Source of the DNA: Omnitrophica bacterium RIFOXYB12_FULL_50_7
GTDB lineage: Bacteria > Omnitrophota > Omnitrophia > Omnitrophales > Aquincolibacteriaceae
Assembly (NCBI GenBank): GCA_001804345.1
Contig: MHFU01000056.1
Span: forward strand, 11,034 to 45,458
Direction: 5' to 3'
Length of the DNA: 34,425 bases
The position numbers and the translations under genes are program-made. Below the pieces are notes generated by a model. That model ran no database searches. It was not told where the DNA came from and saw only the letters and a program-made list of their open reading frames with translations. Shown in pieces: positions 3,377 to 34,425 of this stretch (positions within the stretch are counted from its first letter, which is position 1; each line of letters begins with the position of its first letter).

Positions 3377-3550
3377 GCACCCCTCTGTTCTTTCCGGATG
3401 GACGCCTATTTGACGCGGGGACTTTTCTGGAGAAAATGTCGAAAGAGGGCGTTTTCGTAAGTCGTTTAAAACAAAATGGTTACGACTAATGTGCTCTGAA
3501 CCACAATAGGTTCAGGGCAGCAGTGAGTAGAAGAAAAATTAATGTGGTTT

Positions 3551-3624
3551 GCGCCCGTAGCTCAATTGGATAGAGCACCACACTACGGATGTGGGGGTTG
3601 CAGGTTCAACTCCTGCCGGGCGCG
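3551..3624 (+). tRNA. tRNA-Arg(ACG)
   Basis: Acceptor GCGCCCG/CGGGCGC, D arm GCTC..GAGC, anticodon arm CCACA CTACGGA TGTGG, T arm GCAGG TTCAACT CCTGC. Confidence 0.93.
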
Positions 3625-3628
3625 ATTT

Positions 3629-10665: not shown

Positions 10666-11016
10666 GGGCTAGATTCTAACGTTGATTGGTCCGAATTCAA
10701 TATAACTTTCCCTCTTGAGATCAGCGATATTAACTTCGCTGAGGATAAGAAGCCGGCTCGGTAATCTCTCCGGAATATAGATTGTGTAAAAATGAGGCGT
10801 TGTTCTATAATTCCCAGCAGCAACGGACAATTAGACTTCCGCAAATGTGTTTGGTGTTCACGTTTCTCTATACGACCGAATGAACTTAAAAAAGTTTTCC
10901 AGAGTTTTTAGCGCGCTAATGGACACCCTTTGGGCACCGAAGGCTGGTGGTATAGAAAAATCTTATGCGGTGTAATGAAACCCAACCCGTTAATGCGCAA
11001 GTAGTTGTAGCATCGT

Positions 11017-11103
11017 GGAGAGGTGGCAGAGCGGTTGAATGCGGCAGTCTTGAAAACTGCTAAGTCCGCAAGGGCTTCGGGGGTTCGAATCCCTCCCTCT
11101 CCG
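11017..11103 (+). tRNA. tRNA-Ser(UGA)
   Basis: Acceptor GGAGAGG/CCTCTCC, anticodon arm GCAGT CTTGAAA ACTGC, long variable arm, T-loop TTCGAAT. Confidence 0.92.
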
Positions 11104-11190
11104 TCTTACCTGTGTAAAACGATGTCGCCGACGAGGTTCAAGGAATACTTCGTACGGTAAACGCCGCCACCTTCGGGGAGGGGATTTTCC

Positions 11191-19748: not shown

Positions 19749-19893
19749 TTCGGAATTATGAGATTTTAGTTTTGGAGAGGTTTCTATTCTGTAAAACTAA
19801 AAATATTCATTTAAAAAGAAGCAAGACTGCAATTTAACGCTTTGCAAAAGATAGTTGTTTGAGAGCAAGCCATTCTTCTCTCCCGCTCGGATC

Positions 19894-22800
19894 ATGAGGA
19901 AGCAAACGCCCAGAAACAAAAAAAGGAACCATAAAGAAAAAATGAGGGAGATTTCTAGTTTCAAGCGAACCATCAGCCTGATCATCGCTGTTTGTTTTCT
20001 GACAACGAATGCGATGGCTATGCCTGGTCAGGAAGCGTGGCTCGGGGAACGTGGAACGGGGAACGTATTCGGATCGAAAGATATTCTCTCGCTTTCTATG
20101 CCCTCGTCTCTTGGAACCGTTGTTGAAACTTATCGTGTGGAACAAAAAAACAGGCGTGGCACCCGTTTCCCGTTCACCGTTTCCCGGCACGACCCCATGG
20201 TCGTGTACATTCAAGACGCGCACGACTCCCTCGAAGCCCAGGAAAATATTGCTGGGATGGTCAAGTATCTTACGGAGCAGAAAGGCGTGCGGACAGTCTA
20301 TGAGGAAGGCTATGAAGGCCCGGTCCCCTCTGACCAACTCTTTGGAAACATCCAAGACACGACGCTTAAAGAAAAACTCTCCTATTACCTCATGGACAAA
20401 CTCCGCGTCAGCGGTGCTGAGTATGCGCACATTAACCGACTAGCGGATAGGGTACAGGGTATAGGGTATAGGAAAAACAAAAACAGTGAAGACCTATCCC
20501 TTAAACCCTATCCCCTAAACCCTGATTGGCAATTAATCGGTGCGGACTCGATCGCACTCCATCTCGAAAACATCCGGGCCTACGAACAAAGCGCCAAGAA
20601 ACGCGGGGATATTACCAAGGACATCCAGCGGATCCGCAAAGAACTTCAAAGGATCATGGACCGGAATTTTCCGAAAGAAATCAAACGGTGGATGGAGTTG
20701 CAGAGACGTTATCAGAATGGCCAATTACCGCTGATGGAATATTTACGCAGAACTTATTTGCTGTGGGAAACGGGAAACGGGAAACGGGCAACGAAAACGT
20801 TCAGCGTTCCCCGTTCCCCGTTCCCCGGGATCGGGGCCCTCTTTTCCGGCGATGAAAAAAAAATCAAACAGATCGATCTTGTGAAGCTGATGAGCGAGAT
20901 TCGCCAGCTCGAGGAAGAGGTGGTCGGAAAAGGACTTCCCGGGGATAGCGACCGGAAAACTTACGGGTATTATCAAAGCGTCCTACTTCTCGAAAAACTC
21001 AACGCGATCCAATTGAGTGCTGAGGAATATGCGGCACTCAAGGAATCACTTGAAAACCTCAAGACAGAAGATCTCGCTCAATTCATTGCCCGTGAAACGG
21101 GTCGGTCGATCGTGCTGTTCCGCTCCTGGGAAGATCTCATTACGGATTCGATCAATTTTTATGAGCTCGCGAAGAAACGTGACGAGGCTCTCGGGAAAAT
21201 TTTAGGGGATAGCGTAGAGGGTATAGGGTATAGGAAAAACAAAAACAGTGAAGATCTGCCTCCTAAACCCTATCCCCTAAACCTTAATGCTTCCATTTTG
21301 GTTTTTGGGGGTTTCCACAAAGAAGCCATCAAAAAGATCCTGAAAGAAAAAGGAATCTCGTACGTCATCCTTTCCCCATCCATTACCTCACCGAGCAAGC
21401 GGCATGAGGATTATTATCAGATGCTGATGAGCGGTGGAAAACACGCTTTCGAAACGCCTTCGGGCTTTTCGAAAAGACCACAGTCCCAATTCCAATCAAT
21501 TGAAGCGAATCGGAAATTGGGGCAGCCCCGACTACCATTCATTAAAAGAAATCAAAAGTTGGGACAGACCAGAGACTATAGACTAAAGACCAAAAGCCTC
21601 CTCTCCCCGCGGGAGAGGGAAGGGGTGAGGGGGAAAAGTCTCCAGTCTCCAGTCTCTAGTCTCCAGTCTGGCGGGAAGAGCGGTAGCGATTCACGACAAA
21701 GCATCGCCCGCGAAAGCACCTGCCCGCAGCGTGCTGTTGCAATGGATTACGCGCCCGTGATGGACCATCTCGCCGAAACCGGCGCGCCATTCCGTTCCGA
21801 AACCCGGGCGAATTTTATTTTGAAAATGGACCACGCCCTGTCGGACGAGCACCAGATTGCACCCTACAAACACCCGGGATTTGTAGGGTCAAACGAGAGC
21901 GCCCGCGCGGAGGTGCGGTCTGAAGTTCGATTGGGATTTCCGCCACTTGCAAAAAAATATCAACGATACATTGCCAAGCATGATTTAGATGCGCGGCCGG
22001 TACAAGCACAGCTGATTCATCCTGCTTTAGTCGGTCACGATATGGCCCAGAAGGACGTCATCAATCCCAATGACAAAGAACTTGCGGCGCTTGTTGCGGG
22101 TCCTAATGTTGATATTTCGAAAGTTTTACTCATGAGCAACGCGACGAAAGCTTTCTTTGTGGGGCATCGTCTGGGATTTCTTAAAGCTGATCGATTGCGG
22201 GATCGCCTCACGGCAACGGATTGGGAAAAACCTATTGAGCTGGAAGAGTATCGAGATCACAAATTCCGTACAGGCAGGGCACCGCTATACGAAGGCGTTA
22301 TTAAGGATGCTGAAACTGCCATTCTTATGGAATTACAAGCAATGCAAGTTGAGAAATCCAGCATTCAAATCTTTGATGATGCTGGAGCTAATGACGGCAA
22401 ACTCGCTGTAAGGATTCGCTTTCAATGGGCTTATCACAATCGCAAAGAGCGGGAATATGAATTTACGTTCTTTGATCATGATATTGAGCAAGGAAACTAC
22501 CCGCCGCTTTTAGAACAAGCGCTTAAAGAGAAAATAGACGTTTATCTTCAGTGGGCGCCTGGAACTCTGAGCGAAGCGTACCGCTATTTTCTGAGGCGCA
22601 TTTTGCCTGCGCTGCGGGAGGGTGGGCATATGGTTACGGATGATCGATATTACCATTCGTTTCTGAATGATGTGATTCATTACAGTATTTGTCCTTTTCT
22701 TGAGGATGATGATTCTAATTGGCAAGCGCGAGGTGTGAAAACGCAACCTTTCCAAAATGACTTTTTTATATTCGCGGCGCAAAAGGGAAACGACGGCACT

Positions 22801-25800
22801 TGGTTTGAACGCATCAGAACCATTTTAAAGTGGACCCTTTTGGAACCCTTCGCAGCGCCATTGCTTAAAGCTATTCAAGCGATTCAGGAAGCCTGGAATC
22901 AATGCTTAAGCAATTATTATCATCGGAATGCACATTCTGGTGATCCGCGCCAAAGGCAAAGAGCTCGATGGTCTCTGAAATTGCCCCTCCATTTCAACTG
23001 GATAAGACATTTTGATCTCAGTCGAAATTTTCATTTATATGGGTGGAATGTCCAAATCAGTCAAAAACAAGGGCCCAAGAGTGTGCGCTATCGTAAGCTG
23101 CCACGCGCAGGATACAAAGATCTAAAAGCGCTCAATCTTCATTTCGGAAAAAATCCTCGAAAAACTATGGAAAAAAGCACCTTGTGGGCAGGGGGCGCAG
23201 CCATTTTATTTTCTGCGGCTATGTATTTTGCAAATGCTGTTTCTGATAATGTAAGCTTTCTTTTCTGCGTGCCATTTTTATCTTCAATCGAATTTTTATT
23301 TTTAGCTCTAACATATATTTTCACGCTTCATTTTCTCCCTCAAGTTATTTATTGTTTTGATACGGAACGACGATATGACGCGTTCTCGCCCGGAACGCAC
23401 AGCCGAATTTATCATCCTGAAAACTACAACAATCTTGAATGGCTCCAACACAAATTTGGCGTGGCCCCGCAGGACCTTCGTGAGGCCTACCATGCCATGA
23501 TAGAAGATGTTTATGAGCGGTTAGTCAATCGCTCGATCACGACCGAGGTATTAACACTAGGTTTCTATGAAGATACGAAGGATTATTTGGAACAAGAAAA
23601 AAAACCTCCCTTCGCTCAAGCGGATATTGATATAGCAAGAAAGCGTTTGTCTATCTATATCAAGGAGAAAGATCCCATAAGACGCAAGCTAAGTTTTGAC
23701 CCGGATCATTTGGAGGCAATGAAAGTCATTGGCCGTAAAGAAGATGGCTCGCAAACACTAGATATTATTCCCTTTATCGCAGGGCAAACAGGAGTTCCCC
23801 TTACTCAGACGTTTAAAGAGTTGCTTCATTCAGCCGAGGCGGGGGGCATGGCTCTTCGCAGACAAGGGAAAGAAAAAATCGTTCTTCTTAAAGAGGCTGA
23901 TGATATTTCGATCTTGACCATTGATAAAAAAGGCAAAGTCTTCGTCTCGGGCGTCAGCCGTGGCGGGACTATTTTGGACTATGCTGACGACAAAGTATTT
24001 TTGGAAGAAGGTGCGAAGCCTGTATTTTGTTATCACTCACATCCATGGGCCTCTCCCTTGACTGAAGAGAGAAGTCTTCCGCAAATACTTGCTCCCAGCG
24101 ATGCTGATGAACGGGGGATCGCAAAGATATCAAAAAAATTCCATAGAGCAATCCCTGAGATTATATGGGCTTATGATAGAGAAAAACACAGGCTGGTCGG
24201 ATGGTTTTATGAGCTAACGGGCGATGATTATGAAAAATTAAACAATCCAACAGAACTTACCGTCACTTTAGCAAAACAGCAGCAATTAGATTTCCAACAA
24301 ACACAACAACCGGATAGCGTCCTCACGGGAGGGGTCAGGACGGAAGCCCGCTCGGAAACGAGGGGAGGGAGTCTAAGGGGTTTTGCCGGTGGGGATATTG
24401 AGAAGGACGCTCGTAAGTTGGCGGCGGGGGATACGGCGGCTGGCGTCAAGGATCTCGATGCCGAACACCCGGCCGTTCTTGGCGATATCCATCATAATGC
24501 CGTCGGACACCTTGCGGGCGTGTTTGATCTTGCCCGTCTGGAACTGGATGTACAACGCATCCGCTTCCCGATCGAACGATATTTTCATAAGGAATTTTTA
24601 ACGGGCGGAGAGGAAATCTTCCCAGGACGTCTCGATGTCCTTGAGAATAGAATTCAAAAGCCCTTTTCCGAGATCTTCGCCTTTGTGAAAAGGAACTACC
24701 GTCGCGCGGCCGTCGGGATGGCGAAAATAAATATGACTGCCTTTCTGGCGGAGGCGTTCAAAACCGAGGCGGGTAAGAATGCGGATGACTTCGGAAGAGC
24801 GGAGAGGAATGAGGCGGGCCATCAGTTGACTTCGATCTCCTGGAGTCCGACAAAATCCATGGGCTTGAAGGAAGACCCCTCGACTTCAAGACATAACTGG
24901 ATGGCCTCTTTCATGCGGGGGATAAGAGTGGTAAGGGATTTTGCCTGCGTGTGGCATCCCCGCAGACTGGGGCACGATCCCACAAAGACACCGTCTTCGT
25001 CTTTTTCAATGATGACCATGAAATTTTTCTTGCGCATTTTTTCACCTCTTTCTGTCCCGGATGATATCCCGTCTCTTTTAGGAAGTCAAGGTTTCGCCAT
25101 GGCAGGAGGCGTTGGTACACCGATGGTTTCTCTATTATTAGCTCGTTCGGAAGCGCGTACCGATCAACCTGTCCCCTTGATGCCTGGTACCATTTCTAAG
25201 ACCCGGCTTTCCACCCTGGACACACCGGGTGTGGACAAGGGGGAGAAGCGTTCCGAGATGCGTGTGCCGAATGTTATGGGTAAGGAGCCGAGAGAGATTG
25301 TGATCCGATGGAGCTCTGAAACGGAAAGTACAGATGAAAAAAAACAACATGTCATTGCAGAAGTATGGGATCCGGCTCTGAAAGAACAATTCGGCGTTGG
25401 AGTGTTTTATGTTGAGGACCAAAAGATCAGGATATCGGCTTATTTTCCCATCGGTAAGATAGATGATCCTTCCGGAAAATGGTTCAGAAACAGAGGGAAA
25501 GGAATCTCTTCCACTTTTTTATTTTGGTTGAGCCATTTTGCCATGGCCAATGGCATACGGGAAATCTACATCCAAAGCGACAAGGCGATTAACATTCCGC
25601 TTTTTCGGAAATATTTTGCCGGTCAGTTTTGCCGTCACCCTCATGGAATGACGGAAGCAGAGGTTTGGCAGGATATGGAAAAGGTCGAAGACCCTGCAAC
25701 CGGCGAGGGGCTTTATTCGGAAGCAGTGTTAGGTGAAATAGGAATCGCCGATCTTGCGACCATGGAGATTACGGCTTATGTACGGCTTTCACGGCTTCCG

Positions 25801-28800
25801 GAGCCGGGCGGGCAGTATCGAGTGGATGGGGTGGAGGACAATGTAGAAAGGCTCAAGCAGTACGCTCGTGAAGACGGATTGAAAGAAAGCTCGGTAGTGG
25901 TGACCTTCCCGAAAGCTTTAAGGCCTGGAGCTTGGCTGGAAATCACCGAGAGAGGCATTGTGAAAATTGAAGGAAAAACCATAGGAATTATCAAAGTCGC
26001 AGCAGGGCCGCACTTTGCCGTGAAAGGGGTGCCACGTTTTCCGGAAGAATTGCGATCACTTTCCGAGAGCTTTTACCAAAAAGAAAACCTTCTATTACCA
26101 ATCTCCCAACCAGAAGACTCTAAAGTTCGCTCCGAGGCAAGGGCGGAACTGCGTTCGAAGGATTTCGAAGAATTTATCACCGGCATCGAAAAATTTGTTA
26201 AACATAAAATTTCAAGGCCGGCCCAGCGGGTATTTTGGAAAACGATTGGCTGGATGCATCGCTACCGTTATTACATCACTCCTGCAGTCGTGGCGATAAC
26301 CGCTCTCGCTTATTACATTTTTCTAAAAGTACAAAATTTTCACGAAAAGAACATCCAAAAACCTCTTCGCATTCAAGAGCAAAAGGATGTCCCGGATTCT
26401 TTTCCATCGAGTGGTGCAACGACTACCGAAAAAAAGTCCAGCCGTTCGGAAGCAAGAAACAATATCGCGCAACCACTTTCAACCTACGCGGTTGAAAGCG
26501 GTTCCCATCCTCGCTCGGAAGAGAGGCGGGACAATATTGAAATAGAAAAACTTTTTCCCGATGATGTTGAGGAGCTTCTAAAGTTTAGAGACAAATATTT
26601 TGTTCCCAGGATTGCCTTGGGACTTGAGAAAGCCAAATGGAAGGAAGTTTTTTACAATATCGCCTATGGAGTTCACACGGATCCGACCATGATTTATCTT
26701 GCCAATGATAAAGAAAAAATTGTGGGCTACGTCACGGCGACGGATTTTTCTTCCTGGGAGAAAAGAAAGGGTGAAGGATGGGTGGGCGAGTTTGCCGTGC
26801 ATCCCGAGTATGAAGATCAAGGACTCGGAACAAACCTTTTTGAAAAGGCGCTGGATTGGCTTAAGGAAAGGGAAGGAGTTCGCGTGATTAAACTGACGGA
26901 TGCCTCCGTCCCAGTAGAGATTGACGGCCAAATGGAGAGCCGGGTTGCCAAAATAGCTCAAAAGTTTGGGTTTGAACTTCCCCCAGGGGAGATAAACGAA
27001 TGGCAATTAGATTTGGGGAAGAGTTCTCAGGTGGACGAATCCGACGAAGACCGGATTTTTTTTGGTGATTGGGGCGATGAAGACGATGATAACGATGAGC
27101 GTTCCGAATTGCGCCGGCCTGTCGGTCAGACAGGGGCCCCCTCAAAATCAGGCGAGACAGCGGTCACAGAGTTGTTTAATGGAATACCTGACAACGAGCG
27201 CAAGCTGATCGGGCCTCAGATGAGGGACGTTATTTTTGGGGACTATAGCGACTTTCAGAGGCAGCTTTTCCGTTCGCAATCCCTTCTGCATATTTATCAA
27301 GAAAACCTTGTTGATTTTTTCCGCCTCCACAAAAAAGACTTTCCCGTTTTGCATCGATATCTCCAGACAATTATCAATAACACCACATACGAAAACTGCT
27401 TACCAACCAACGGCCTCGAGCTTTTGTTTTACCGTGTGGTGCGTGCCCGCTACAGCAAAATAGAGAAGCTTACGGACGCGAGTTTAAAGGCCTTTGACGA
27501 GATTTTGCCAGAATTTGTAAAAACAGTTTCGCTGATATTAGCGAACGCCTATGCAGGTAAAATTAAAACCTCGCCCGCGTTCCGGGAAGCCCTCTTTTTG
27601 AGGGAAGAGATTTTGTACCAAACAAATCCCGAAAAAATCCGGGACATCGGCCGCAGAGTGAAAGAAATTTCAACGAGTCCCTCATGGGATGACGATGGTG
27701 AAGCAAAAAAGCGGGCGGAATTGCGGGAAGAAGATAGAGCAACGGGCACTTCACTCGCCACAACGCGTTGGACGAATCCGCCAACCCTCGAACAGATCCA
27801 GACATTGCGGCAGTTGCAGGAACAGGCGGACATGACTCAGCGGGCATTTGCGAATGCAATCAGAACGCATGAGGCGACTCTCTCTAGGATAAAAGCCGGA
27901 AAAGAATCTGCTCGTTGGGCGGCAGTGCTTATCCAGAGGGCGAAAGAGATTCTCAGGGATAAATTGCAACAGGCGCAGATGCCGGCAACACCGGAACAAA
28001 TCAGGGAATTTCGATCCATTCGGGAGCGTCTGAAGCTTTCTCCGGAGCGGTTCCGGGAGCTTCTTGGGCTTTTGGAGCCCGGAGAGCTATCTTTCAAGAG
28101 AATGGAGGAGCTATTACTAAAAGCAAGGCGGTTGGTTCCGTCTTCTGAAAAAGTTCAAGAATTAATCCGTATCCGGGAAGAAAAAGGATTGAGTCGGCAG
28201 GAGCTGGCTGCCCTGCTAAAAATCCCGGCAGAAACGCTTCTTGCCGCGGAACGAGGAGAAATGATCGCTTCCCAGGTTAAAACTTTGCTCTTGAAACTTA
28301 AACGGAAAAAAGCGTTGCCCAAAGATCCCGATCCGGAAGCGCTGGAAGCCGGAAGACGGTTAAAAACAATACGGGAACAGCATTTCCCGGGTTTGACCCA
28401 GGCGCGATTTGGAAACATGATCAATCCGGACATGAAAAATCCACAGTCCAGCATTTCTATGGCGGAGCGAGGGTTCACCAGCAAGGAAAGGTTCGAGCGG
28501 TTTATTCGATTAGCCCAAGCCCATATAACCGCTCAACCGTCGACTGAAACCGGTCGCGAAATTCGCTCACCCGACAAAGACCCGGTCCTAGGACCGGGTC
28601 TTAGGAAGGGTGAAGGCCGTTCGGAAATTCGTTTTTCAAATTTCCGCACTGAGAGTGGCAAAGCCACCGTGCGTGCGGAGGTGCGTCGCCCCAAGAAGGG
28701 GGGCGGAAAACGGAGGGCAAAAGCTGTGACGCAAAGGAAATCCCAAAAGGCACTTTCTTTATATTCTTTCTTCGGACTTCTGGCAGCCGGAGGTCTTTTT

Positions 28801-31800
28801 CTGGTTGCAGAAAGATTTTTAAACACACCCCTTGAATCTGGCGAGAAAAAACCCGCACCGATCGGTTTAGTTTCCAAAACCGAACGAGCACCGCCTCAAA
28901 GCACGGAGTCTTCATCTGCTGAAAAAGTTGATCCCGTACCTTTTTTCACTCCGGAATCCTTACGAGAAATTTCTCTTGAAAAACTTATCCCGTTGTCCGC
29001 TTTACAGAACTCCTACTTTTGGTTCGATCTTCATTCCGGGGAAAAAGCCGGTGAGCGATTAGCTTCTTTTATCGAACGGATAGCGAAAGAAAAACAAGGA
29101 GCCGATATTTTCCGTATCCGGGTCGTTCGGGAAAATGGCTTTTCTCTTTTAGAAGTTAGAAAAAGAGTCCAAGTGTTGTTTGAAAGAGGAGAGATTTCCG
29201 AGGGTGATTTTAAATGGATAATGAATCTACGCGCTGAAGATTTTAACGATGGAGGAAAGAGAAAAAAAATCGAACGAATCGTTGCCCAGTGTGTGGAACA
29301 AGCCAACGGGGAATGGCCTAGCGAATACCCCTTGGAAAACAAAACTATCTCAGGTGCTACTTTAGAATTTGACCGGGAGCTCCTTGAAAGATTAATAACG
29401 AATGAAGCGTTGGGAAAGAAAATAGTTTTTGTTAATGAAACGGTTCATCTTGAGCCGACGCTTCTCCAGATGGAATATGAACTGCTCAGAGAACAGGCCG
29501 TCAAGGCGCTACTATTCGAAGTGGACGAGAGCCAGGTCTTTGTGGCCTATTTTTCGTTGATCAAGCGATCCATGCAGGCCAAGTACGAGTCACAGGAAAT
29601 TCGGGAAATGAACTATATCCGGGAAAAAATCCTGCCGTTGTTAAAAGATCCCCGACAGGACCAGGATGTTCATGTTTTTCCAAGAGGGACGCAACATTTC
29701 TTTTTACTCGAACATCTTTTCCCTCAGTTGATCGGGGCGCTTTCTTTGCAGCAGCTCTATTTGGTGGAACATGCTTGGGAATATTCCATGGCGGATGTGG
29801 AAAGGATCGGGTTAACGCGGTGGAGAGAAAAACGGTTGGCCGAGGACTTCAGCGAATCCGAGAAAGAAACGCTTCTCAAAGATGCTCTTCATCAACTACT
29901 TCTGATGGTCATGAAGCCGCTTTTTGCCAGCCCGAAGCAGTATGATCCCGAATTGTTTTCGAAAGCGAGCAACTCAGTGCTGAGAAATTTATCAGCCGAG
30001 CAGGTAAAGGAAATTCTAGAAGAGATCCGGTTGCTGAGCCAGCAGATGAAACCTTTACCGGAACCAGAGCAATTCTTTGGTATTTTGGGGTGTGTGACAT
30101 GGGCAAGAATTCAAGATTTGTTGCCGGGTGAATATCGCGATCAATTTATAAAAGTCATCATTGACCGCGAACCGGAACGGCTGAGGATCATTAAGGACCA
30201 TAAAACGGAAGTGAAACCTATTCTTTATTCCGTCCCGCTTGTCCCGCGCTCGGAATTGCGCCTGCCCGCCCAGGAGTCAGTGGCGGGGGCTGCCATTTCG
30301 CCGAAAGCAGAAGGCGATTCGCGCCTCTCAAAAGAAATTCTTAAATATCTTTTAAATTTAGAAAATGCGGCTAAGCGTCCCAATAGCGCTATTCGTCAAA
30401 CCGCTTTTACTATGCGCAGTACGATTCTTGCCGCCTTGGCCGATCAAGGGCGCCGGCTTCCATTGAAGAACAGAGTTTTTGAAACAACCGACGATTTTAG
30501 TATCCGTAACCGCCTGGCGGATTTTGCCGCGTCCATTGATCTTGCGATCACTCTCATCGAACAAGGCCAAACCCCCGACCTTGTTTTTGTTAAAAAGAAA
30601 CTTACTGACCGTGATCCGCGTATTCGCCAAGCCGCTTTTAAGGCCTCGGTTTCTCTTGCGGCGGCCTTGTTCAAAAAAAGTAAAAAACCCAATCTTTCTT
30701 TTTTGAAAAATGCATTACTTGATACGGATCCTTATGTTCGCGCCGATGGCCTTATCGCCTTTAGCATGATTACCGCCACTCTCATTGACCAGAAAAGAAT
30801 CAAACTCCCCGATCCTTACCTGGATGCTGTCGAAGCCGCTAAAGCTGTTGCGCGCACGGTTACAAATTCCTTCACGGATTATGGGCAACCCTCCGAGCCC
30901 TCTCTCTTTGATTTAGCACTTTTCGATAAAGCGACACCCATTTCTCAAGCGATTATTATTGCCCTTGGGAACATCGCGGCCGCTTTGATCAGACATGGCA
31001 GGATTTCCAGCCTTGTTTTTTTTATAGGGAGACTTACCGACCATGATCCGCGTATTCGCCAGGCCGCTGTTACGGCTTTTGGTACTATTACCTGCGCCCG
31101 TATTGACCAGGGTAAACCTCCTCAATTTTCTTTCTTTAATACAGTTCTCAAAGATCCTGATTCGGAAGTTCGCCAAGCCGCTGTCACGGCTTTAGGCGAT
31201 GTTGACACGGCTCTCGGCAAACGAGGCCCAATCCCCAATCTATCTTCTTTTGATACAGCTTTTAATGATTCCAACTCAAGGGTTCGAACGGCGGCCGTTA
31301 CTGCTTTCGGCGCTGTTGCGGCAGCTTCGATCAAGCATCAATACCGGATCCCTGAATTGTCTCTTTTTCATAAGGCCTTTGCTGACACTAATCCTGATGT
31401 TCGCAAAGCCGCTTTCACAGCTTTCAGCACTGTCGCCATTCGCTGCATTAACCAGGGGCAGACTCTTCCTGACCTTTCTCCCTTTAATAATGTTGAAAAC
31501 GATCCAGATGAAAGCGTTTACACGACAGCTCTTATCGCTTTTGATGCCATTGCCGCCGCTTCTATTAGGCGAGGCCAAAATCCTGATCTATCTCCTCTTA
31601 ATAAAGCCCTTTCTGATTTCAGCGGAGATGTTCGGGCTACCGCCCTTATCGCCTTCGGCGCTGTCAGTGCCAGCCGTATCGATCAAGGTCAAACTCCCGA
31701 CTTGTCTCTTTTTCAAAGGAAGCCCAAAGATACCGACCCGCGTATTCAGCAAGCCCTGCTCATTGCCTTGGGTGCTGTAACAGCGGCGGAGATCCGGCAA

Positions 31801-34425
31801 GGTAAATTTTCGGACGAAGATTACGAGAGATATGAACTTTGGCTTCAGGAGCAGTTCCCGAGTTACGAGCCGATCGCGGTCGAGTATTTGGAGGCCAAAG
31901 ATCCACGGGCTTATATTGATTCCATCCGTCTCATTGCTAAGGACAGTATTGCCGGGGGTCCAATATTATTCAAACACCTGGAGCGGCATCACTCCGCGGA
32001 AGAATGGAAAGCGATTCAATCTTTCCATCATATTGTTCATGATAATCTGGGAATGGTTTTACAGGCGCTCACGGTCACCGGTTATCCCCTCAGCCGTTTT
32101 GAAGATTTAAGAAAAGTCCTTCCCTTTAATAATCCACTGACCCGTATTCTCCGGCTGTTGGGGGAGCCGTCGGATATCATTGGCGGCTACGTGGATGTTA
32201 CCAAGAAATTAATTCTTGCCGGTCAATTCAGCTCCTTCTACAGAATTATTCTGGATGTCGCGGAGAAAAGAGGGCGCCTCGCTCCCCAGGAGATTTCCGC
32301 TATGCTGGAACTCTTGCGTGCTACTTCCTTTGAAAGGTGGACCGAAAAGGACTGGAATAAGTTCTACGGAGATATTAGCCGTTACCACGCCGCAGGTTTC
32401 AAGGCCCTGACTCCCGAGCTCTTTAATTTTTTTATCCAAAACGAAAACAAGCCTGCCGTTATTACCCAATTTCATAAAGACGTTACCAGGGAACTCGGCG
32501 TTTCAATTGCCTGGGGTTCTTTCGCGGGTCTTACTCCCGCATTCAGGAGAAAATACAGCGTCTCATCTGCGGGCGAACTCGCCCTTCTTGCCAAATATAT
32601 TCCTATCGCCAATCTCTCGAGCCGGGATTACGAGGGGAAATATCTGGAGATCCAGTCCGCTTTAAACGAAAGACGGGGCTGGAAAGAAGAAGTCCCTCCT
32701 GCTCTCCGGTCTCTTTATTCCATTACCGGAACCCGTGGCAGTGTGTCTTATGAAATCCCGCCTGAAACCGCCTCCAAAGACGAGGCAAACCATCGCGATG
32801 AACTTCACCGCCGGCTTCAGAGCTATACCCAGACTCCTCTCAGAACTTTTGAAGAGCTGATCGGTCTTATGGGTACTTCCGAGTATTCGACTCTCCCAGA
32901 TCTTGAGAAAAAGCGCGCTGTCCTTCAATGGTCTTTTCGAACGGCGAAGCTTGATCCCCGACCCTATTCCCAAATACCAAACTCTGATGCCGAGCTCTTA
33001 GGATGGTTGAATCAGTGGACTTCTTTTTTTCGGGACACCTGGAAACATGACCAGCCCCCGGCCGCGAAAGAGCTTGTCCGTCAGAAAATTCTTTCACTTA
33101 AAGGGCCTCCTCTTGAAACCCTGAAGCAGGAGATGAGGTTGGATCGCTACCAGATGATTCGTCTCCAGGACCCCAAGCGCTTCCTTCCGAGAACGAGTGA
33201 ACTTTATGACATTCTGACGAATCCTTCACTTGCCCCGGGCGACAGAGAACAAAGACTGGCGAGGGAATTCCAAAGCCGGCTTTCTCAGGTTTCCTCAGAG
33301 GACCTTGGCAACGAATCTTTCATGAAAGACTTTTTTGAAAAAACCAAAACCAAAGCCCTGGAAGCGGTTACGCGTCACGCGCTTGACAAGGCAAAAAAAC
33401 CTCTTAGTTTCGAAGAGCTTGACTCTTTTGGCAGCTTGATCGCTTCTGCTCTAGGCGGGAGTTATCAAGCCGTACAAAAGCAGATAAATGGTCAATCGGA
33501 CGAGGACCGTAAACTCGTTATTCTCGCTGATCGTGTCGCCCAGCAGTATCTCACTCTTTTTAGCGAGGATATTCAGGCGACCAGCGAAGAGATTCCCCGA
33601 TACAAGCGGACCGAAACAGCTTCCGAGACAGAATTCCGTGTTGGTTTTTTTGATGACCTGTTGCATCTGATGAGTTTTATGATGACAGGGGTCTGTACCT
33701 GGGTTGAAAGAGACAGACAAGTTTCGGACCGACGTTATCATTTCGGAAAAATAGCACTTAAAGATACCGAGGGCCGCGTCTTAGGCGCAAGTCAGGTCCA
33801 GTTGGCCAAAGTCCACATCAAGGGCGCCGCTCCCAAAACCTCTCCTCAGGGGTGGTCGGTCATGGCGCTTCCGGGGAATAATCTTTTTCAGGGGGAGATC
33901 GGCATTAGTAATGAAAAAGCAATGTTGGCCATTTTAGAATATGCCCAGCGGTCGGCCGAAGAGGCAGGCCTTGAAGGCGCCGTTATCCCTACCGATGCTG
34001 CTATTCACACAAATCAGGAAGGAACCGTCGGTAAAATCATTCAATCTCTTCATGCCAAAGGATGGTTAAGATCCGTTTCTCTTACAGGGTCCATTGTTCT
34101 TTCTGCGGAGTATGCTTACTCGAACGTCTGGCTCATCCAGATCCCGGAAACCGCATTCCAGTTGACTTCCCCCTCTCAGAAAAGACCTCTTTCCGAAAAT
34201 GAGATCGCGGAAAAGGAAATAAAAGCTCAAAAAGAAGGGAAGGTTGTTGCCGGAGGTTTTATAGAAATTGTTCCTCCCCAGGGCGCGCGGGCGGAGGTGC
34301 GGGCAGGACAAGAGATCCAGGCGCTTACCGAGGAAGTCCTCGATACCATGCCGCAACAGGTTGTCCGGCATATTCGTAACTATATCCAGGAATATGATAT
34401 CGAGGTCCGCGTTGTTCCCAATCCG
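19894..34425 (+). CDS. Giant multi-module membrane-anchored protein, 3' end beyond the window (at least 4,844 codons)
   Basis: No stop in frame 1 from the TAG at 19852-19854 to base 34425. First ATG is 19894 (a TTG lies at 19855). N-terminal signal anchor RTISLIIAVCFLTTNAMA. Recognisable GNAT, HTH and HEAT-like modules. No terminated track ORF occupies this frame. Confidence 0.85.
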   Translation, partial: MRKQTPRNKKRNHKEKMREISSFKRTISLIIAVCFLTTNAMAMPGQEAWLGERGTGNVFGSKDILSLSMPSSLGTVVETYRVEQKNRRGTRFPFTVSRHDPMVVYIQDAHDSLEAQENIAGMVKYLTEQKGVRTVYEEGYEGPVPSDQLFGNIQDTTLKEKLSYYLMDKLRVSGAEYAHINRLADRVQGIGYRKNKNSEDLSLKPYPLNPDWQLIGADSIALHLENIRAYEQSAKKRGDITKDIQRIRKELQRIMDRNFPKEIKRWMELQRRYQNGQLPLMEYLRRTYLLWETGNGKRATKTFSVPRSPFPGIGALFSGDEKKIKQIDLVKLMSEIRQLEEEVVGKGLPGDSDRKTYGYYQSVLLLEKLNAIQLSAEEYAALKESLENLKTEDLAQFIARETGRSIVLFRSWEDLITDSINFYELAKKRDEALGKILGDSVEGIGYRKNKNSEDLPPKPYPLNLNASILVFGGFHKEAIKKILKEKGISYVILSPSITSPSKRHEDYYQMLMSGGKHAFETPSGFSKRPQSQFQSIEANRKLGQPRLPFIKRNQKLGQTRDYRLKTKSLLSPREREGVRGKSLQSPVSSLQSGGKSGSDSRQSIARESTCPQRAVAMDYAPVMDHLAETGAPFRSETRANFILKMDHALSDEHQIAPYKHPGFVGSNESARAEVRSEVRLGFPPLAKKYQRYIAKHDLDARPVQAQLIHPALVGHDMAQKDVINPNDKELAALVAGPNVDISKVLLMSNATKAFFVGHRLGFLKADRLRDRLTATDWEKPIELEEYRDHKFRTGRAPLYEGVIKDAETAILMELQAMQVEKSSIQIFDDAGANDGKLAVRIRFQWAYHNRKEREYEFTFFDHDIEQGNYPPLLEQALKEKIDVYLQWAPGTLSEAYRYFLRRILPALREGGHMVTDDRYYHSFLNDVIHYSICPFLEDDDSNWQARGVKTQPFQNDFFIFAAQKGNDGTWFERIRTILKWTLLEPFAAPLLKAIQAIQEAWNQCLSNYYHRNAHSGDPRQRQRARWSLKLPLHFNWIRHFDLSRNFHLYGWNVQISQKQGPKSVRYRKLPRAGYKDLKALNLHFGKNPRKTMEKSTLWAGGAAILFSAAMYFANAVSDNVSFLFCVPFLSSIEFLFLALTYIFTLHFLPQVIYCFDTERRYDAFSPGTHSRIYHPENYNNLEWLQHKFGVAPQDLREAYHAMIEDVYERLVNRSITTEVLTLGFYEDTKDYLEQEKKPPFAQADIDIARKRLSIYIKEKDPIRRKLSFDPDHLEAMKVIGRKEDGSQTLDIIPFIAGQTGVPLTQTFKELLHSAEAGGMALRRQGKEKIVLLKEADDISILTIDKKGKVFVSGVSRGGTILDYADDKVFLEEGAKPVFCYHSHPWASPLTEERSLPQILAPSDADERGIAKISKKFHRAIPEIIWAYDREKHRLVGWFYELTGDDYEKLNNPTELTVTLAKQQQLDFQQTQQPDSVLTGGVRTEARSETRGGSLRGFAGGDIEKDARKLAAGDTAAGVKDLDAEHPAVLGDIHHNAVGHLAGVFDLARLELDVQRIRFPIERYFHKEFLTGGEEIFPGRLDVLENRIQKPFSEIFAFVKRNYRRAAVGMAKINMTAFLAEAFKTEAGKNADDFGRAERNEAGHQLTSISWSPTKSMGLKEDPSTSRHNWMASFMRGIRVVRDFACVWHPRRLGHDPTKTPSSSFSMMTMKFFLRIFSPLSVPDDIPSLLGSQGFAMAGGVGTPMVSLLLARSEARTDQPVPLMPGTISKTRLSTLDTPGVDKGEKRSEMRVPNVMGKEPREIVIRWSSETESTDEKKQHVIAEVWDPALKEQFGVGVFYVEDQKIRISAYFPIGKIDDPSGKWFRNRGKGISSTFLFWLSHFAMANGIREIYIQSDKAINIPLFRKYFAGQFCRHPHGMTEAEVWQDMEKVEDPATGEGLYSEAVLGEIGIADLATMEITAYVRLSRLPEPGGQYRVDGVEDNVERLKQYAREDGLKESSVVVTFPKALRPGAWLEITERGIVKIEGKTIGIIKVAAGPHFAVKGVPRFPEELRSLSESFYQKENLLLPISQPEDSKVRSEARAELRSKDFEEFITGIEKFVKHKISRPAQRVFWKTIGWMHRYRYYITPAVVAITALAYYIFLKVQNFHEKNIQKPLRIQEQKDVPDSFPSSGATTTEKKSSRSEARNNIAQPLSTYAVESGSHPRSEERRDNIEIEKLFPDDVEELLKFRDKYFVPRIALGLEKAKWKEVFYNIAYGVHTDPTMIYLANDKEKIVGYVTATDFSSWEKRKGEGWVGEFAVHPEYEDQGLGTNLFEKALDWLKEREGVRVIKLTDASVPVEIDGQMESRVAKIAQKFGFELPPGEINEWQLDLGKSSQVDESDEDRIFFGDWGDEDDDNDERSELRRPVGQTGAPSKSGETAVTELFNGIPDNERKLIGPQMRDVIFGDYSDFQRQLFRSQSLLHIYQENLVDFFRLHKKDFPVLHRYLQTIINNTTYENCLPTNGLELLFYRVVRARYSKIEKLTDASLKAFDEILPEFVKTVSLILANAYAGKIKTSPAFREALFLREEILYQTNPEKIRDIGRRVKEISTSPSWDDDGEAKKRAELREEDRATGTSLATTRWTNPPTLEQIQTLRQLQEQADMTQRAFANAIRTHEATLSRIKAGKESARWAAVLIQRAKEILRDKLQQAQMPATPEQIREFRSIRERLKLSPERFRELLGLLEPGELSFKRMEELLLKARRLVPSSEKVQELIRIREEKGLSRQELAALLKIPAETLLAAERGEMIASQVKTLLLKLKRKKALPKDPDPEALEAGRRLKTIREQHFPGLTQARFGNMINPDMKNPQSSISMAERGFTSKERFERFIRLAQAHITAQPSTETGREIRSPDKDPVLGPGLRKGEGRSEIRFSNFRTESGKATVRAEVRRPKKGGGKRRAKAVTQRKSQKALSLYSFFGLLAAGGLFLVAERFLNTPLESGEKKPAPIGLVSKTERAPPQSTESSSAEKVDPVPFFTPESLREISLEKLIPLSALQNSYFWFDLHSGEKAGERLASFIERIAKEKQGADIFRIRVVRENGFSLLEVRKRVQVLFERGEISEGDFKWIMNLRAEDFNDGGKRKKIERIVAQCVEQANGEWPSEYPLENKTISGATLEFDRELLERLITNEALGKKIVFVNETVHLEPTLLQMEYELLREQAVKALLFEVDESQVFVAYFSLIKRSMQAKYESQEIREMNYIREKILPLLKDPRQDQDVHVFPRGTQHFFLLEHLFPQLIGALSLQQLYLVEHAWEYSMADVERIGLTRWREKRLAEDFSESEKETLLKDALHQLLLMVMKPLFASPKQYDPELFSKASNSVLRNLSAEQVKEILEEIRLLSQQMKPLPEPEQFFGILGCVTWARIQDLLPGEYRDQFIKVIIDREPERLRIIKDHKTEVKPILYSVPLVPRSELRLPAQESVAGAAISPKAEGDSRLSKEILKYLLNLENAAKRPNSAIRQTAFTMRSTILAALADQGRRLPLKNRVFETTDDFSIRNRLADFAASIDLAITLIEQGQTPDLVFVKKKLTDRDPRIRQAAFKASVSLAAALFKKSKKPNLSFLKNALLDTDPYVRADGLIAFSMITATLIDQKRIKLPDPYLDAVEAAKAVARTVTNSFTDYGQPSEPSLFDLALFDKATPISQAIIIALGNIAAALIRHGRISSLVFFIGRLTDHDPRIRQAAVTAFGTITCARIDQGKPPQFSFFNTVLKDPDSEVRQAAVTALGDVDTALGKRGPIPNLSSFDTAFNDSNSRVRTAAVTAFGAVAAASIKHQYRIPELSLFHKAFADTNPDVRKAAFTAFSTVAIRCINQGQTLPDLSPFNNVENDPDESVYTTALIAFDAIAAASIRRGQNPDLSPLNKALSDFSGDVRATALIAFGAVSASRIDQGQTPDLSLFQRKPKDTDPRIQQALLIALGAVTAAEIRQGKFSDEDYERYELWLQEQFPSYEPIAVEYLEAKDPRAYIDSIRLIAKDSIAGGPILFKHLERHHSAEEWKAIQSFHHIVHDNLGMVLQALTVTGYPLSRFEDLRKVLPFNNPLTRILRLLGEPSDIIGGYVDVTKKLILAGQFSSFYRIILDVAEKRGRLAPQEISAMLELLRATSFERWTEKDWNKFYGDISRYHAAGFKALTPELFNFFIQNENKPAVITQFHKDVTRELGVSIAWGSFAGLTPAFRRKYSVSSAGELALLAKYIPIANLSSRDYEGKYLEIQSALNERRGWKEEVPPALRSLYSITGTRGSVSYEIPPETASKDEANHRDELHRRLQSYTQTPLRTFEELIGLMGTSEYSTLPDLEKKRAVLQWSFRTAKLDPRPYSQIPNSDAELLGWLNQWTSFFRDTWKHDQPPAAKELVRQKILSLKGPPLETLKQEMRLDRYQMIRLQDPKRFLPRTSELYDILTNPSLAPGDREQRLAREFQSRLSQVSSEDLGNESFMKDFFEKTKTKALEAVTRHALDKAKKPLSFEELDSFGSLIASALGGSYQAVQKQINGQSDEDRKLVILADRVAQQYLTLFSEDIQATSEEIPRYKRTETASETEFRVGFFDDLLHLMSFMMTGVCTWVERDRQVSDRRYHFGKIALKDTEGRVLGASQVQLAKVHIKGAAPKTSPQGWSVMALPGNNLFQGEIGISNEKAMLAILEYAQRSAEEAGLEGAVIPTDAAIHTNQEGTVGKIIQSLHAKGWLRSVSLTGSIVLSAEYAYSNVWLIQIPETAFQLTSPSQKRPLSENEIAEKEIKAQKEGKVVAGGFIEIVPPQGARAEVRAGQEIQALTEEVLDTMPQQVVRHIRNYIQEYDIEVRVVPNP
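20044..20187. repeat. In-frame heptamer inverted repeat (GGGAACG-type) with 96-nt interior
   Basis: Left arm GGGGAAC GTGGAAC GGGGAAC G. Right arm CCGTTTC CCGTTCA CCGTTTC CCGG. 144 nt, equal to 48 codons. Confidence 0.6.
20446..20523. repeat. In-frame palindromic element (GGGTATA-type), copy 1
   Basis: GATAGGGTACAGGGTATAGGGTATAGG, then AAAAACAAAAACAGTGAAGA, then CCTATCCCTTAAACCCTATCCCCTAAACCCT. 78 nt, equal to 26 codons. Confidence 0.7.
20765..20829. repeat. In-frame heptamer inverted repeat (GGGAAAC-type)
   Basis: (GGGAAAC)x3 GGGCAACG, loop AAAACGTTCAG, (CGTTCCC)x3 CGGG. Related to 1545-1603. Confidence 0.7.
21208..21285. repeat. In-frame palindromic element (GGGTATA-type), copy 2
   Basis: About 90 percent identical to 20446-20523. 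Located 762 nt (254 codons) downstream in the same frame. Confidence 0.7.
21563..21671. repeat. In-frame heptamer inverted repeat (AGAC/GTCT-type) with inner hairpin
   Basis: Left arm ACAGACC AGAGACT ATAGACT AAAGACC. Inner hairpin CCTCTCC..GGAGAGG. Right arm GTCTCCA GTCTCCA GTCTCTA GTCTCCA GTCTGG. Confidence 0.65.
23995..24130 (+). other. Possible JAB/MPN (RadC-like) metalloprotease motif region in the giant ORF
   Basis: FCYHSHPWASPL...LAPSDADERGI resembles HxHP...S..D, but with a longer spacer than the canonical JAMM motif. Confidence 0.3.
24373..24588 (-). CDS. DUF2283 family protein
   Basis: MKISFDREADALYIQF....GRVFGIEILDASRRI is the characteristic DUF2283 pattern. Lies 9 nt downstream of hicA. 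Confidence 0.85.
   Translation of the reverse strand: MKISFDREADALYIQFQTGKIKHARKVSDGIMMDIAKNGRVFGIEILDASRRIPRRQLTSVLLNIPTGKTP
24598..24822 (-). CDS. hicA: HicA family mRNA interferase toxin
   Basis: SSEVIRILTRLGFERLRQKGSHIYFRHPDGRATVVPFHKGEDLGKGLLNSILKD. Its start overlaps the hicB stop (TGATG). Confidence 0.9.
   Translation of the reverse strand: MARLIPLRSSEVIRILTRLGFERLRQKGSHIYFRHPDGRATVVPFHKGEDLGKGLLNSILKDIETSWEDFLSAR
24822..25037 (-). CDS. hicB: HicB family antitoxin (UPF0150-like)
   Basis: FMVIIEKDEDGVFVGSCPSLRGCHTQAKSLTTLIPRMKEAIQLCLE. AGAGGTGA RBS. Confidence 0.9.
   Translation of the reverse strand: MRKKNFMVIIEKDEDGVFVGSCPSLRGCHTQAKSLTTLIPRMKEAIQLCLEVEGSSFKPMDFVGLQEIEVN
25061..25089 (-). 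promoter_or_regulatory. Candidate sigma70 promoter of the hicB-hicA-DUF2283 operon
   Basis: On the minus strand: TTGACT (25089-25084), 17-nt spacer, TATCAT (25066-25061). About 24 nt upstream of the hicB ATG. Confidence 0.55.
25330..25640 (+). other. Possible GNAT-like module in the giant ORF
   Basis: FRNRGKGISSTFLFWLSHFAMANGIREIYIQ resembles the acetyl-CoA-binding motif A (R/Q-x-x-G-x-G/A). Confidence 0.35.
26536..26994 (+). other. GNAT N-acetyltransferase module in the giant ORF
   Basis: IVGYVTATDF...WVGEFAVHPEYEDQGLGTNLFEKALDWLKEREGVRVIKL...AQKFGFE. Confidence 0.7.
27778..28530 (+). other. Four tandem XRE/Cro-like helix-turn-helix units in the giant ORF
   Basis: Four units: LRQLQEQADMTQRAFANAIRTHEATLSRIKAG; FRSIRERLKLSPERFRELLGL; IRIREEKGLSRQELAALLKIPAETLLAAERG; LKTIREQHFPGLTQARFGNMI...SSISMAERG. 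Confidence 0.6.
28578..28601. repeat. Perfect 24-nt palindrome inside the giant ORF
   Basis: AGACCCGGTCCTAGGACCGGGTCT, translated in frame as KDPVLGPGL, 17 nt upstream of an RSEIR motif. Confidence 0.9.
30328..31805 (+). other. HEAT-like (PBS-lyase type) repeat array, about 11 units, in the giant ORF
   Basis: Recurring D.DP.[IV]R..A..A[FL]G.... units (DPRIRQAAFKAS, DPYVRADGLIAF, DPRIRQAAVTAFG, DSEVRQAAVTALG, NSRVRTAAVTAFG, NPDVRKAAFTAF...). Confidence 0.75.

Follow-up and report, generated by a model that had tools for sequence, protein, structure and literature searches.

Do the giant proteins predicted from genomes of Candidatus Omnitrophota operate as one working chain, or are they cut? 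Published analyses of giant proteins ask this question, and it is raised again by the locus studied here, a stretch of 34,425 nucleotides (nt) of Omnitrophica bacterium RIFOXYB12_FULL_50_7 (GenBank assembly GCA_001804345.1, contig MHFU01000056.1, positions 11,034 to 45,458; hereafter the window), which ends within a giant open reading frame (ORF). The predicted protein carries repeated copies of a pentapeptide, R-[S/A]-E-x-R, and an initial annotation made from the DNA letters had proposed that these copies mark the boundaries between its modules. This proposal is upheld, and it extends to a whole family of proteins in which the pentapeptide coincides with the limits of homology blocks and is confined to ORFs bearing one conserved head domain. 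We tentatively suggest that the pentapeptides are putative cleavage sites of a polyprotein.

The giant ORF (frame 0) is open from position 19855 to the end of the window at 34425, where it runs off, leaving 4,857 codons for analysis. Public gene calls place its start at the ATG at 19942, and on a 51-kb ENA contig from an anammox-reactor metagenome its product reaches at least 6,749 amino acids (aa), with the ORF still cut by the contig end. The regular expression R[SA]E.R has exactly 16 matches in this ORF, the same 16 as initially listed, and the chance count is 0.33 from the composition of the ORF and 0.32 as the mean of 2,000 shuffles, in agreement with the earlier estimate of well below one. 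Codon use was also correctly described as differing between the 16 copies, and none of the window's remaining 13 genes (5,008 aa in total) contains an in-frame copy, as had been stated. The 4,857 aa available encode HEAT repeats, a GNAT acetyltransferase domain, helix-turn-helix (HTH) domains and some 4-5 hydrophobic segments, and the motifs do lie between recognisable domains: the GNAT domain is found between the motifs at aa 2220 and 2416, and the HTH region (aa 2650-2806) is bracketed by those at aa 2620 and 2922. The latter region had been taken for a toxin-antitoxin cassette flanked by motifs; motifs indeed stand on both sides of the Xre-type HTH domains, but a toxin domain was not detected. 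Motifs lie 39 and 22 aa upstream of the hydrophobic segments aa 2139-2157 and aa 2966-2984, respectively, the second of which comes after a basic stretch; this bears out the description of motifs placed before basic and transmembrane segments. Near the end of the window, BLAST matches to two family members cover the ∼770 aa that precede the last RAEVR and stop 1-2 residues short of it, and both partners have no exact motif near the end of the match. With 16 internal copies, and a hydrophobic segment within 40 aa downstream of just 2 of the 16, the motif does not follow the pattern of C-terminal sorting signals of the LPXTG or PEP-CTERM type. On the question of whether the motifs lie in linkers, a single-sequence AlphaFold model of aa 2085-2950, for which there were no homologues, had a mean predicted local distance difference test (pLDDT) score of 37.

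Relatives of this protein are numerous, and they share one part of it. An exhaustive HMMER search with aa 30-1229 as the query gave 3,314 cluster representatives below an E-value of 1e-3, of which 289 were below 1e-30. Most are 1,000-7,600 aa long, and in every case the match is confined to the initial ∼510 residues (query residues 1-520), which we refer to as the head. The motif was then counted in the 150 best homologues, each representing a cluster at 50% identity, where it was observed 923 times versus 27.2 expected. An unbiased k-mer scan of the bodies, the parts outside the head, returned RSEMR (645 times), RSEVR (276) and RSELR (150) as the first three enriched 5-mers, followed by ARSEM, which overlaps the motif, and by RSEAR (121) in fifth place. 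The resulting logo reads R, then S (77%) or A (23%), E, one of V, L, M, A or I, and R, with a weak preference for S, T or N at the next position; apart from an over-representation of P, S, T and G, the flanks show no conservation. In its strict form, R[SA]E[MVLAI]R, the motif occurs 820 times versus 7.6 expected, and conservative substitutions (K for either R, D or Q for E, T or G at the second position) occur at the level of chance.

A scan of one genome per GTDB species yielded 154 relatives, and 80 loci were kept for analysis. Motif density in these loci rises with ORF length, from 0.04 per 1,000 aa in ORFs shorter than 300 aa to 2.0 in those of 2,000 aa or more. When ORFs of at least 600 aa were sorted by a hidden Markov model of the head domain, those bearing the head had 2.07 motifs per 1,000 aa (482 in 233,000 aa), and the head-less ones, limited to ORFs with an intact N-terminus, had five in 31,700 aa, all of them in one ORF that is split from its head only by masked Ns. 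The motif is restricted to head-bearing ORFs of the family. Frequent occurrence in ordinary proteins, which the initial annotation had named as the outcome that would speak against a boundary marker, is not what the head-bearing and head-less ORFs of the 80 loci display.

Within these proteins, the motif sits at module junctions. All-against-all BLAST of the bodies produced 1,137 local matches with a length of 100 aa or more. Of these, 32% start within 10 aa of a motif (4.7% in the null) and 60% within 30 aa (null, 12%), with a sharp peak exactly on the first R; for the ends of the matches the peak is on the last R, and 12.5% of them fall within 10 aa, versus 4.7% in the null. Pfam domains fall between motifs, and none lies across one. 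Successive motifs are separated by a median of 292 aa, and doublets enclosing short low-complexity spacers of 16-45 aa are common. Transmembrane-like segments occur at +10 to +70 of a motif in 81 instances and at -70 to -10 in 34 (p = 1e-5), and when clusters of transmembrane segments in the bodies are taken as the reference, a motif is found 10-70 aa upstream of 29% and downstream of 11% of them. This suggests that many modules begin like independent membrane-anchored proteins. The flanks of the motifs are slightly more unfolded-like than random positions.

What is conserved at these junctions is the peptide. Over 495 motif copies analysed at the DNA level, information amounts to 1-2 bits at the first and second codon positions and to 0.2-0.3 bits at wobble positions, a pattern that points to selection on the peptide. 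The fourth residue adds a further layer, as two motifs agree in it with a frequency of 0.35 within an ORF, 0.42 between ORFs of the same genome and 0.18 between genomes. The clearest such dialect is that of genome JAUYMS01 (loci L069, L070, L075, L076, L080 and L085), in which 36 out of 36 motifs over seven ORFs are RSELR (35) or RAELR (1), written with all six Leu codons, all six Arg codons, both Glu codons and both classes of Ser codons, and set in unrelated flanks. The six head-bearing ORFs among the seven have only the head in common, at 40-46% identity, and the seventh, cut at the start of its locus, has no match to the other six. Such dialects imply a reader that has one specificity for every giant protein encoded in a genome, and whose specificity shifts from one genome to the next.

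The head itself consists of a hydrophobic signal or anchor with a basic stretch upstream, followed by the invariant blocks IQDAHDSLEAQE, TVxEEGYEG, GGAEYAHINR and VFGGFH, and the alignment columns contain invariant His, Asp and Glu residues. No match to it was found in Pfam, NCBIfam or the sequences of the PDB, nor to any protease family. An AlphaFold model built from a 13-sequence alignment (mean pLDDT 68.6) was compared with the PDB by Foldseek, and the top two matches were erythromycin esterase EreC (6xcq and 6xcs), both weak (E = 0.14-0.21, template modelling score 0.17-0.25); the best of them (E = 0.14, probability 0.44, template modelling score about 0.2) is not significant. The tenth match, 2rad, is annotated as 'succinoglycan biosynthesis protein' and is Ere-like. 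The blocks 'strand-QDAHD...E' and 'FGGFH' of the head resemble the two His motifs of the Tiki/TraB/ChaN/EreA superfamily, as far as can be judged by eye from the sequence, and together with the EreC ranking this modelled fold gives only a hint of a relationship to erythromycin esterases. The head differs from the Tiki/TraB-PrgY/ChaN/erythromycin-esterase superfamily in a helical insertion of ∼250 aa and in having no Pfam or PDB sequence match.

Several features of the DNA within the head region stand apart from this. Two 86-nt copies that are 88% identical (20441-20526 and 21203-21288), each forming an imperfect hairpin (GGGTATAGGGTATAGG...CCTATCCC...), are translated in frame as GIGYRKNKNSEDL..KPYPLN, and nested inverted arms made of simple repeats with GGGGAACG and GGGAAACG units pair 20043-20065 with 20805-20827 and 20162-20185 with 20765-20788. 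Homologues have other short insertions at the same loop positions of the head, where the pLDDT of the model is below 50. It looks as if hairpin or simple-repeat DNA is tolerated in frame in surface loops. In one locus (L087, 10001-11296, protein P0154), the head stands alone as a 431-aa protein with a signal anchor, no body and no motif, next to ordinary genes (fasciclin, flavodoxin) on a 462-kb contig, and possibly represents the presumed reader or enzyme in free-living form.

Every record among the 80 loci that names a phylum is a metagenome-assembled genome (MAG) of Candidatus Omnitrophota/Omnitrophica; one is labelled 'uncultured Planctomycetales bacterium', and the remainder are 'uncultured bacterium' MAGs. 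Several genomes have multiple head-bearing paralogues. Syntenic orthologues, which have the same CorA, RlmN and 564-aa neighbours as the window, align with its protein only to aa ∼660-770, and the similarity stops at the second motif (aa 684-692) or up to ∼80 residues past it, depending on the orthologue. The shared head and the loss of similarity past the second motif indicate a family made of a constant head and a hypervariable modular body. For the body segments at aa 641-1503 and 2085-2950, word-indexed homologue searches came back empty, as did a genome scan with aa 641-1503, and the bodies are effectively orphans. On these sequence comparisons, the giant ORF is a member of a Candidatus Omnitrophota-specific family of head-plus-cargo proteins whose modular bodies cannot be aligned.

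How is the pentapeptide used? The initial annotation had offered protease processing sites, docking or sorting signals, and junction scars of module shuffling. Either of the first two may hold, and the data fit processing best, given the position at junctions, the strictness, the dialects and the short spacers; scars are disfavoured. Short strict sites, their presence at every module limit, their co-variation by genome, the spacers and the anchored modules together make polyprotein processing sites the best-supported reading, and these five properties are classic for polyprotein cleavage sites. We therefore propose that R-[S/A]-E-[V/L/M/A/I]-R is a recognition site at the protein level, that the giant ORF encodes a polyprotein and that the pentapeptides are putative endoproteolytic sites, to which we give slightly less than an even chance; that the site is cut, at which bond and by which enzyme is what we infer. 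The giant ORF would be expressed as a polyprotein consisting of the head and a hypervariable cargo of enzyme, regulator, repeat and membrane modules, and a protease that serves every giant protein of a genome would read the pentapeptides. Cleavage would free modules of ∼300 aa plus the short spacers of 16-45 aa, and many of the freed modules would have a membrane anchor at their own N-terminus. A candidate for this protease is the head of the family itself, with its invariant His, Asp and Glu and its weak fold match to erythromycin esterases, and since proteins bearing the head are the only ones with the motif, the head would be the natural candidate for either the enzyme or a recruiting element. 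For the invariant Glu, for the aliphatic residue at position four and for the Arg residues alike, there is a known protease specificity class in which they would suit the P1 position.

A number of observations weigh against cleavage at these sites. Members poor in motifs or with variant motifs exist (P0097, L050, L064): one 4,929-aa protein (P0134) has RPEAR eight times, RxEMR is found elsewhere, and L064 (1-9261) has RTEMR seven times inside 21-aa tandem units (RTEMRPVTDVTGLHKSFDSLD). The last of these had been considered as a motif-free giant ORF control and was dropped, as it carries this variant. Where a motif is located within a homology block, its position is not conserved, with 40 out of 145 (28%) aligned to a motif of the partner. 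Nor are wobble positions entirely neutral: CGY encodes the first Arg in 77% of copies versus 40% in the background, TCN the Ser in 94% versus 69%, and the codon of the fourth residue ends in G in 58%, a residual bias that could possibly come from selection for accurate translation at critical residues or from shared ancestry. The head matches no protease family in sequence and its fold match is weak, and clustering of the neighbouring ORFs of the 80 loci revealed no protease gene conserved beside the giant genes, the most recurrent neighbour being an ABC exporter (9 of 80 loci). Finally, to judge from the hydrophobic segments, motifs apparently occur on both sides of the membrane, the GNAT and HTH modules being presumably cytoplasmic and the head and HEAT repeats exported, which is awkward for a single protease bound to one compartment.

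Four other explanations were ranked by their likelihood. The strongest of them holds that the pentapeptide is a short linear motif that is not cleaved, and serves each module as a docking, targeting or assembly signal while the giant protein stays intact; its receptor would be encoded in the genome, e.g., a chaperone, a factor for secretion or membrane insertion, or a scaffold, for which the HEAT modules, the TPR modules and the head come into question. All the evidence for a reader (strictness, dialects, restriction to head-bearing proteins) applies to it equally, the transmembrane segments that follow motifs would suit a targeting or insertion cue, and a co-translational reader in the cytoplasm could cope with motifs predicted on either side of the membrane. 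Yet there is no evident need for binding motifs to stand exactly at the limits of homology blocks, or for doublets around low-complexity spacers, and no candidate receptor has emerged so far, so that we regard this explanation as unlikely, if far from negligible.

The same codon preferences that trouble the proposal of cleavage would fit a pentapeptide that, perhaps together with its preferred codons, paused or otherwise acted on the ribosome at module boundaries, so that modules fold, insert or are released singly. The ribosome has the further merit of meeting every module, whatever its final compartment. A genome-specific fourth residue is hard to square with a conserved ribosome as the reader, however, all synonymous codons are used in JAUYMS01, and the information at wobble positions is small. 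To our knowledge, the motif is also unlike any known arrest peptide, and we find this possibility improbable.

The fact that homology between proteins begins and ends at motifs, a weak DNA consensus (CGY TCC GAR NTG CGG) and the very fast turnover of the bodies could all be explained by a scar or generic linker left passively by module shuffling, e.g., through microhomology-mediated in-frame recombination, and devoid of function. A scar would decay, yet among the representatives of 50%-identity clusters there are four invariant positions next to variable wobble positions, the peptide being kept with scrambled synonymous codons, and conservative replacements are not tolerated beyond the level of chance. 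Moreover, anciently diverged paralogues of one genome share the fourth residue through all six Leu codons, and this genome-specific pattern excludes a passive scar as its source; overall, the scar is close to refuted, and we give it very little weight. Repetition at the DNA level was also considered and rejected, as a repeat search found around some motifs only similarities of 18-39 nt, at the level of chance.

Least credible of all is a signal in the nucleic acid (an RNA hairpin, an RNase site or an internal start, the fourth codon often being ATG, GTG or TTG) with the conserved peptide as its by-product, which would account for the enrichment of Met, Val and Leu at the fourth position, for GTG being 55% of the Val codons there versus 30% in the background and for the GGAGGTG within some RAEVR copies, but is at odds with the strict three-base periodicity of the information and its low level at wobble positions. 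A Shine-Dalgarno-like sequence, if any, would stand right next to the fourth codon, too close by comparison with the usual spacing. Among its specific forms, a hairpin with a CGY...GCG stem was rejected as there is no covariation at the only plausible stem (positions 2 and 11, p = 0.2), and an internal start codon was rejected in the role of main explanation, as ATG, GTG and TTG make up just 38% of the fourth codons and the preference for G-ending codons also holds for Ala, Thr and Ser.

A precursor of a ribosomally synthesized and post-translationally modified peptide, acted on by a radical SAM/SPASM enzyme, was likewise discarded, because no radical SAM family is conserved beside the giant genes in the 80 clustered loci. 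The window does encode a radical SAM/SPASM enzyme (9634-10665, minus strand), with no obvious precursor peptide gene nearby.

Omnitrophota are already known for giant ORFs, which reach 147,155 aa. In West-Roberts et al. (2023; bioRxiv 10.1101/2023.11.21.568195), the Archaeovorin of Omnitrophota is described as the product of a gene of more than 90 kb, with more than 30,000 aa comprising glycosyltransferases, methyltransferases, glycosyl hydrolases, peptidases, radical SAM, NUDIX and HEAT domains and many transmembrane helices; the same preprint suspects proteolysis by C39 or S8 domains, and notes that missing cleavage points block splitting, structure prediction and functional dissection. This preprint and that of Nielsen & Lui (2026; 10.64898/2026.06.07.730766) report giants in which HEAT, GNAT, glycosyltransferase and kinase domains form a mosaic and the topologies are improbable; their sets are defined by length (>30,000 or ≥10,000 aa) and Pfam content. 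Neither a junction motif nor a shared head occurs in the searched text of the two, the 2023 Nature Microbiology paper likewise had no motif in a term search, and our literature search returned no paper combining these pentapeptides with bacteria and nothing relevant for Omnitrophota and polyprotein. The window family resembles the published giants in its phylum, in its mosaic of HEAT, GNAT, regulator and membrane modules and in its near species-unique sequences, and differs from them in the head and junction motif that their searched text lacks. Those sets have length cut-offs, and the window protein has at least 6,749 aa. Of the content named for the Archaeovorin, the 4,857 aa searched have HEAT repeats and hydrophobic segments, and no glycosyltransferase, methyltransferase, glycosyl hydrolase, NUDIX or peptidase domain.

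Beyond the phylum, viral polyproteins such as those cut at flavivirus NS3 or picornavirus 3C sites are similar in that a long ORF of unrelated modules has a short strict site at the junctions, and in that the site co-varies with the genome, suggesting co-evolution with a cognate reader; here, in contrast, the host is cellular, there are several such ORFs per genome and cleavage is putative. We know of no viral site that R-S/A-E-h-R matches. In the MARTX toxins of Vibrio, effector modules are freed by an internal cysteine protease domain, at sites that are simple Leu-X bonds. These are also large bacterial proteins with constant ends and variable, shuffled modules, but the giant ORF differs in its five-residue motif, its taxon and its secretion machinery, and no RTX-type glycine-rich repeats and no CPD autoprocessing domain were found in its 4,857 aa with Pfam or NCBIfam. 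The precursors of the gingipain polyproteins of Porphyromonas (RgpA, Kgp, HagA) and of fungal KEX2 repeat proteins each yield several mature products, through cuts that separate domains or repeats at Arg, Lys or dibasic residues; their sites consist of one or two basic residues, whereas here there is an invariant Glu and two Arg four positions apart, and Lys is not accepted. The motif would thus be of a junction recognition or cleavage site type known from multi-module precursors, and its carrier an uncharacterised head-plus-cargo family.

The features of the giant ORF are compiled below with the tRNA genes of the window.

Features of the giant ORF and tRNA genes in the window (positions relative to its first nucleotide)
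Feature	Position	Strand	Evidence
Giant ORF, 5' part	19942..34425	+	open frame from 19855; public contig
Conserved head domain, sole part common to the family	19942..21534	+	HMMER, alignment columns
N-terminal hydrophobic signal/anchor, aa 40-58 (...AMA/MP), basic stretch before	19972..20028	+	hydrophobicity and sequence reading
RSETR, first motif, within block 'APF-RSExR-xxFILKMD' kept in syntenic orthologues	21793..21807	+	regular expression, alignment
RAEVRSEVR, two overlapping motifs, aa 684-692	21904..21930	+	regular expression, alignment
RTEAR near-motif (24337-24351) overlapping RSETR, aa 1495-1503	24337..24363	+	regular expression
RSEAR	25144..25158	+	regular expression
RSEMR, 35 aa past the previous motif (short spacer)	25249..25263	+	regular expression
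RSEARAELR, two overlapping motifs, 39 aa upstream of hydrophobic segment	26128..26154	+	regular expression
Transmembrane-like segment, aa 2139-2157	26269..26325	+	hydrophobicity
RSEAR	26443..26457	+	regular expression
RSEER (aa 2220), directly before GNAT module	26512..26526	+	regular expression
GNAT acetyltransferase domain, aa 2266-2374; full module aa 2225-2415 bounded by motifs	26650..26976	+	domain search
RSELR (aa 2416), directly after GNAT module	27100..27114	+	regular expression
RAELR (aa 2620), ahead of HTH module	27712..27726	+	regular expression
Xre-type HTH domains, aa 2650-2691 and 2772-2806	27802..28272	+	domain search
RSEIR, past HTH module	28618..28632	+	regular expression
RAEVR, then basic stretch and transmembrane-like segment (signal-anchor-like)	28672..28686	+	regular expression
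Transmembrane-like segment, aa 2966-2984	28750..28806	+	hydrophobicity
RSELR, ahead of HEAT-repeat module	30247..30261	+	regular expression
HEAT repeats, aa 3567-3990; no motif inside	30553..31824	+	domain search
RAEVR	34288..34302	+	regular expression
tRNA-Ser (GGA, GCT, TGA) and tRNA-Arg (ACG) genes	1745-1833, 2261-2353, 3550-3625, 11016-11105		

Two segments of the body deserve mention in their own right. At aa 1394-1418 (24034-24108), HSHP, 17 further residues and PSDAD resemble the JAB/MPN+ metalloprotease motif (HxH...SxxD) with a longer spacer; Pfam returned nothing for this segment, which, if the resemblance is true, would be a protease module within this particular cargo. The module at aa 1504-1763 (24364-25143) is odd and low-complexity-looking, with no family match and one weak match in another giant protein, beginning 14 aa past a motif there; it lies within the part of the window with the highest GC skew (0.13, at 24001-26000).

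Elsewhere in the window, a 564-aa protein without a Pfam family is encoded divergently from the giant gene (17913-19607, minus strand), and the only loci in which it keeps this position are the syntenic orthologous ones, L007-L013. In the ORF at 6999-9623, the window has GAG at 7944-7946 where an otherwise identical public contig (L001) has TAG, which fuses a gene for a DUF2207_C membrane protein (315 aa) in frame with a TrkA/ion-channel gene (557 aa), the latter having its own GGAGG and ATG, into an ORF of 874 aa; this may be a live stop-loss gene fusion in a lineage known for giant ORFs, or a sequencing variant. A seryl-tRNA synthetase gene (208-1479) is followed within 11 kb by the three tRNA-Ser genes and the tRNA-Arg gene, and the correspondence of this cluster to the Ser and Arg of the motif and to the preferred codons CGY and TCY is probably a coincidence.

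The motif provides objective points at which giant proteins can be split into modules for annotation and structure prediction, and together with the head it forms a sequence signature that unites thousands of giant proteins that cannot otherwise be aligned. The dialects offer a means of tracing the co-evolving reader. The motif also gives the exact peptides to seek in existing metaproteomes, termini at the motif versus read-through, and hence a first testable map of where the giant proteins of Omnitrophota might be split. A bolder version of the polyprotein proposal, which we offer as speculation and consider rather unlikely as a whole, would have Omnitrophota make dozens of otherwise ordinary proteins (enzymes, regulators, membrane proteins) in the form of polyproteins that process themselves. 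The exported head would then be a new site-specific protease, Tiki- or erythromycin-esterase-like, and either it or a single genome-encoded partner would cut R-S/A-E-h-R, with a specificity pocket that drifts between genomes along with all sites in all paralogues, as a cellular counterpart of viral polyproteins that would possibly deliver variable cargo to prey or host. The giant ORFs of Omnitrophota are among the least understood bacterial genes, and whether and where their products are cut now becomes a concrete test on existing data; cleavage, if true, would amount to large-scale polyprotein expression by a cellular organism.

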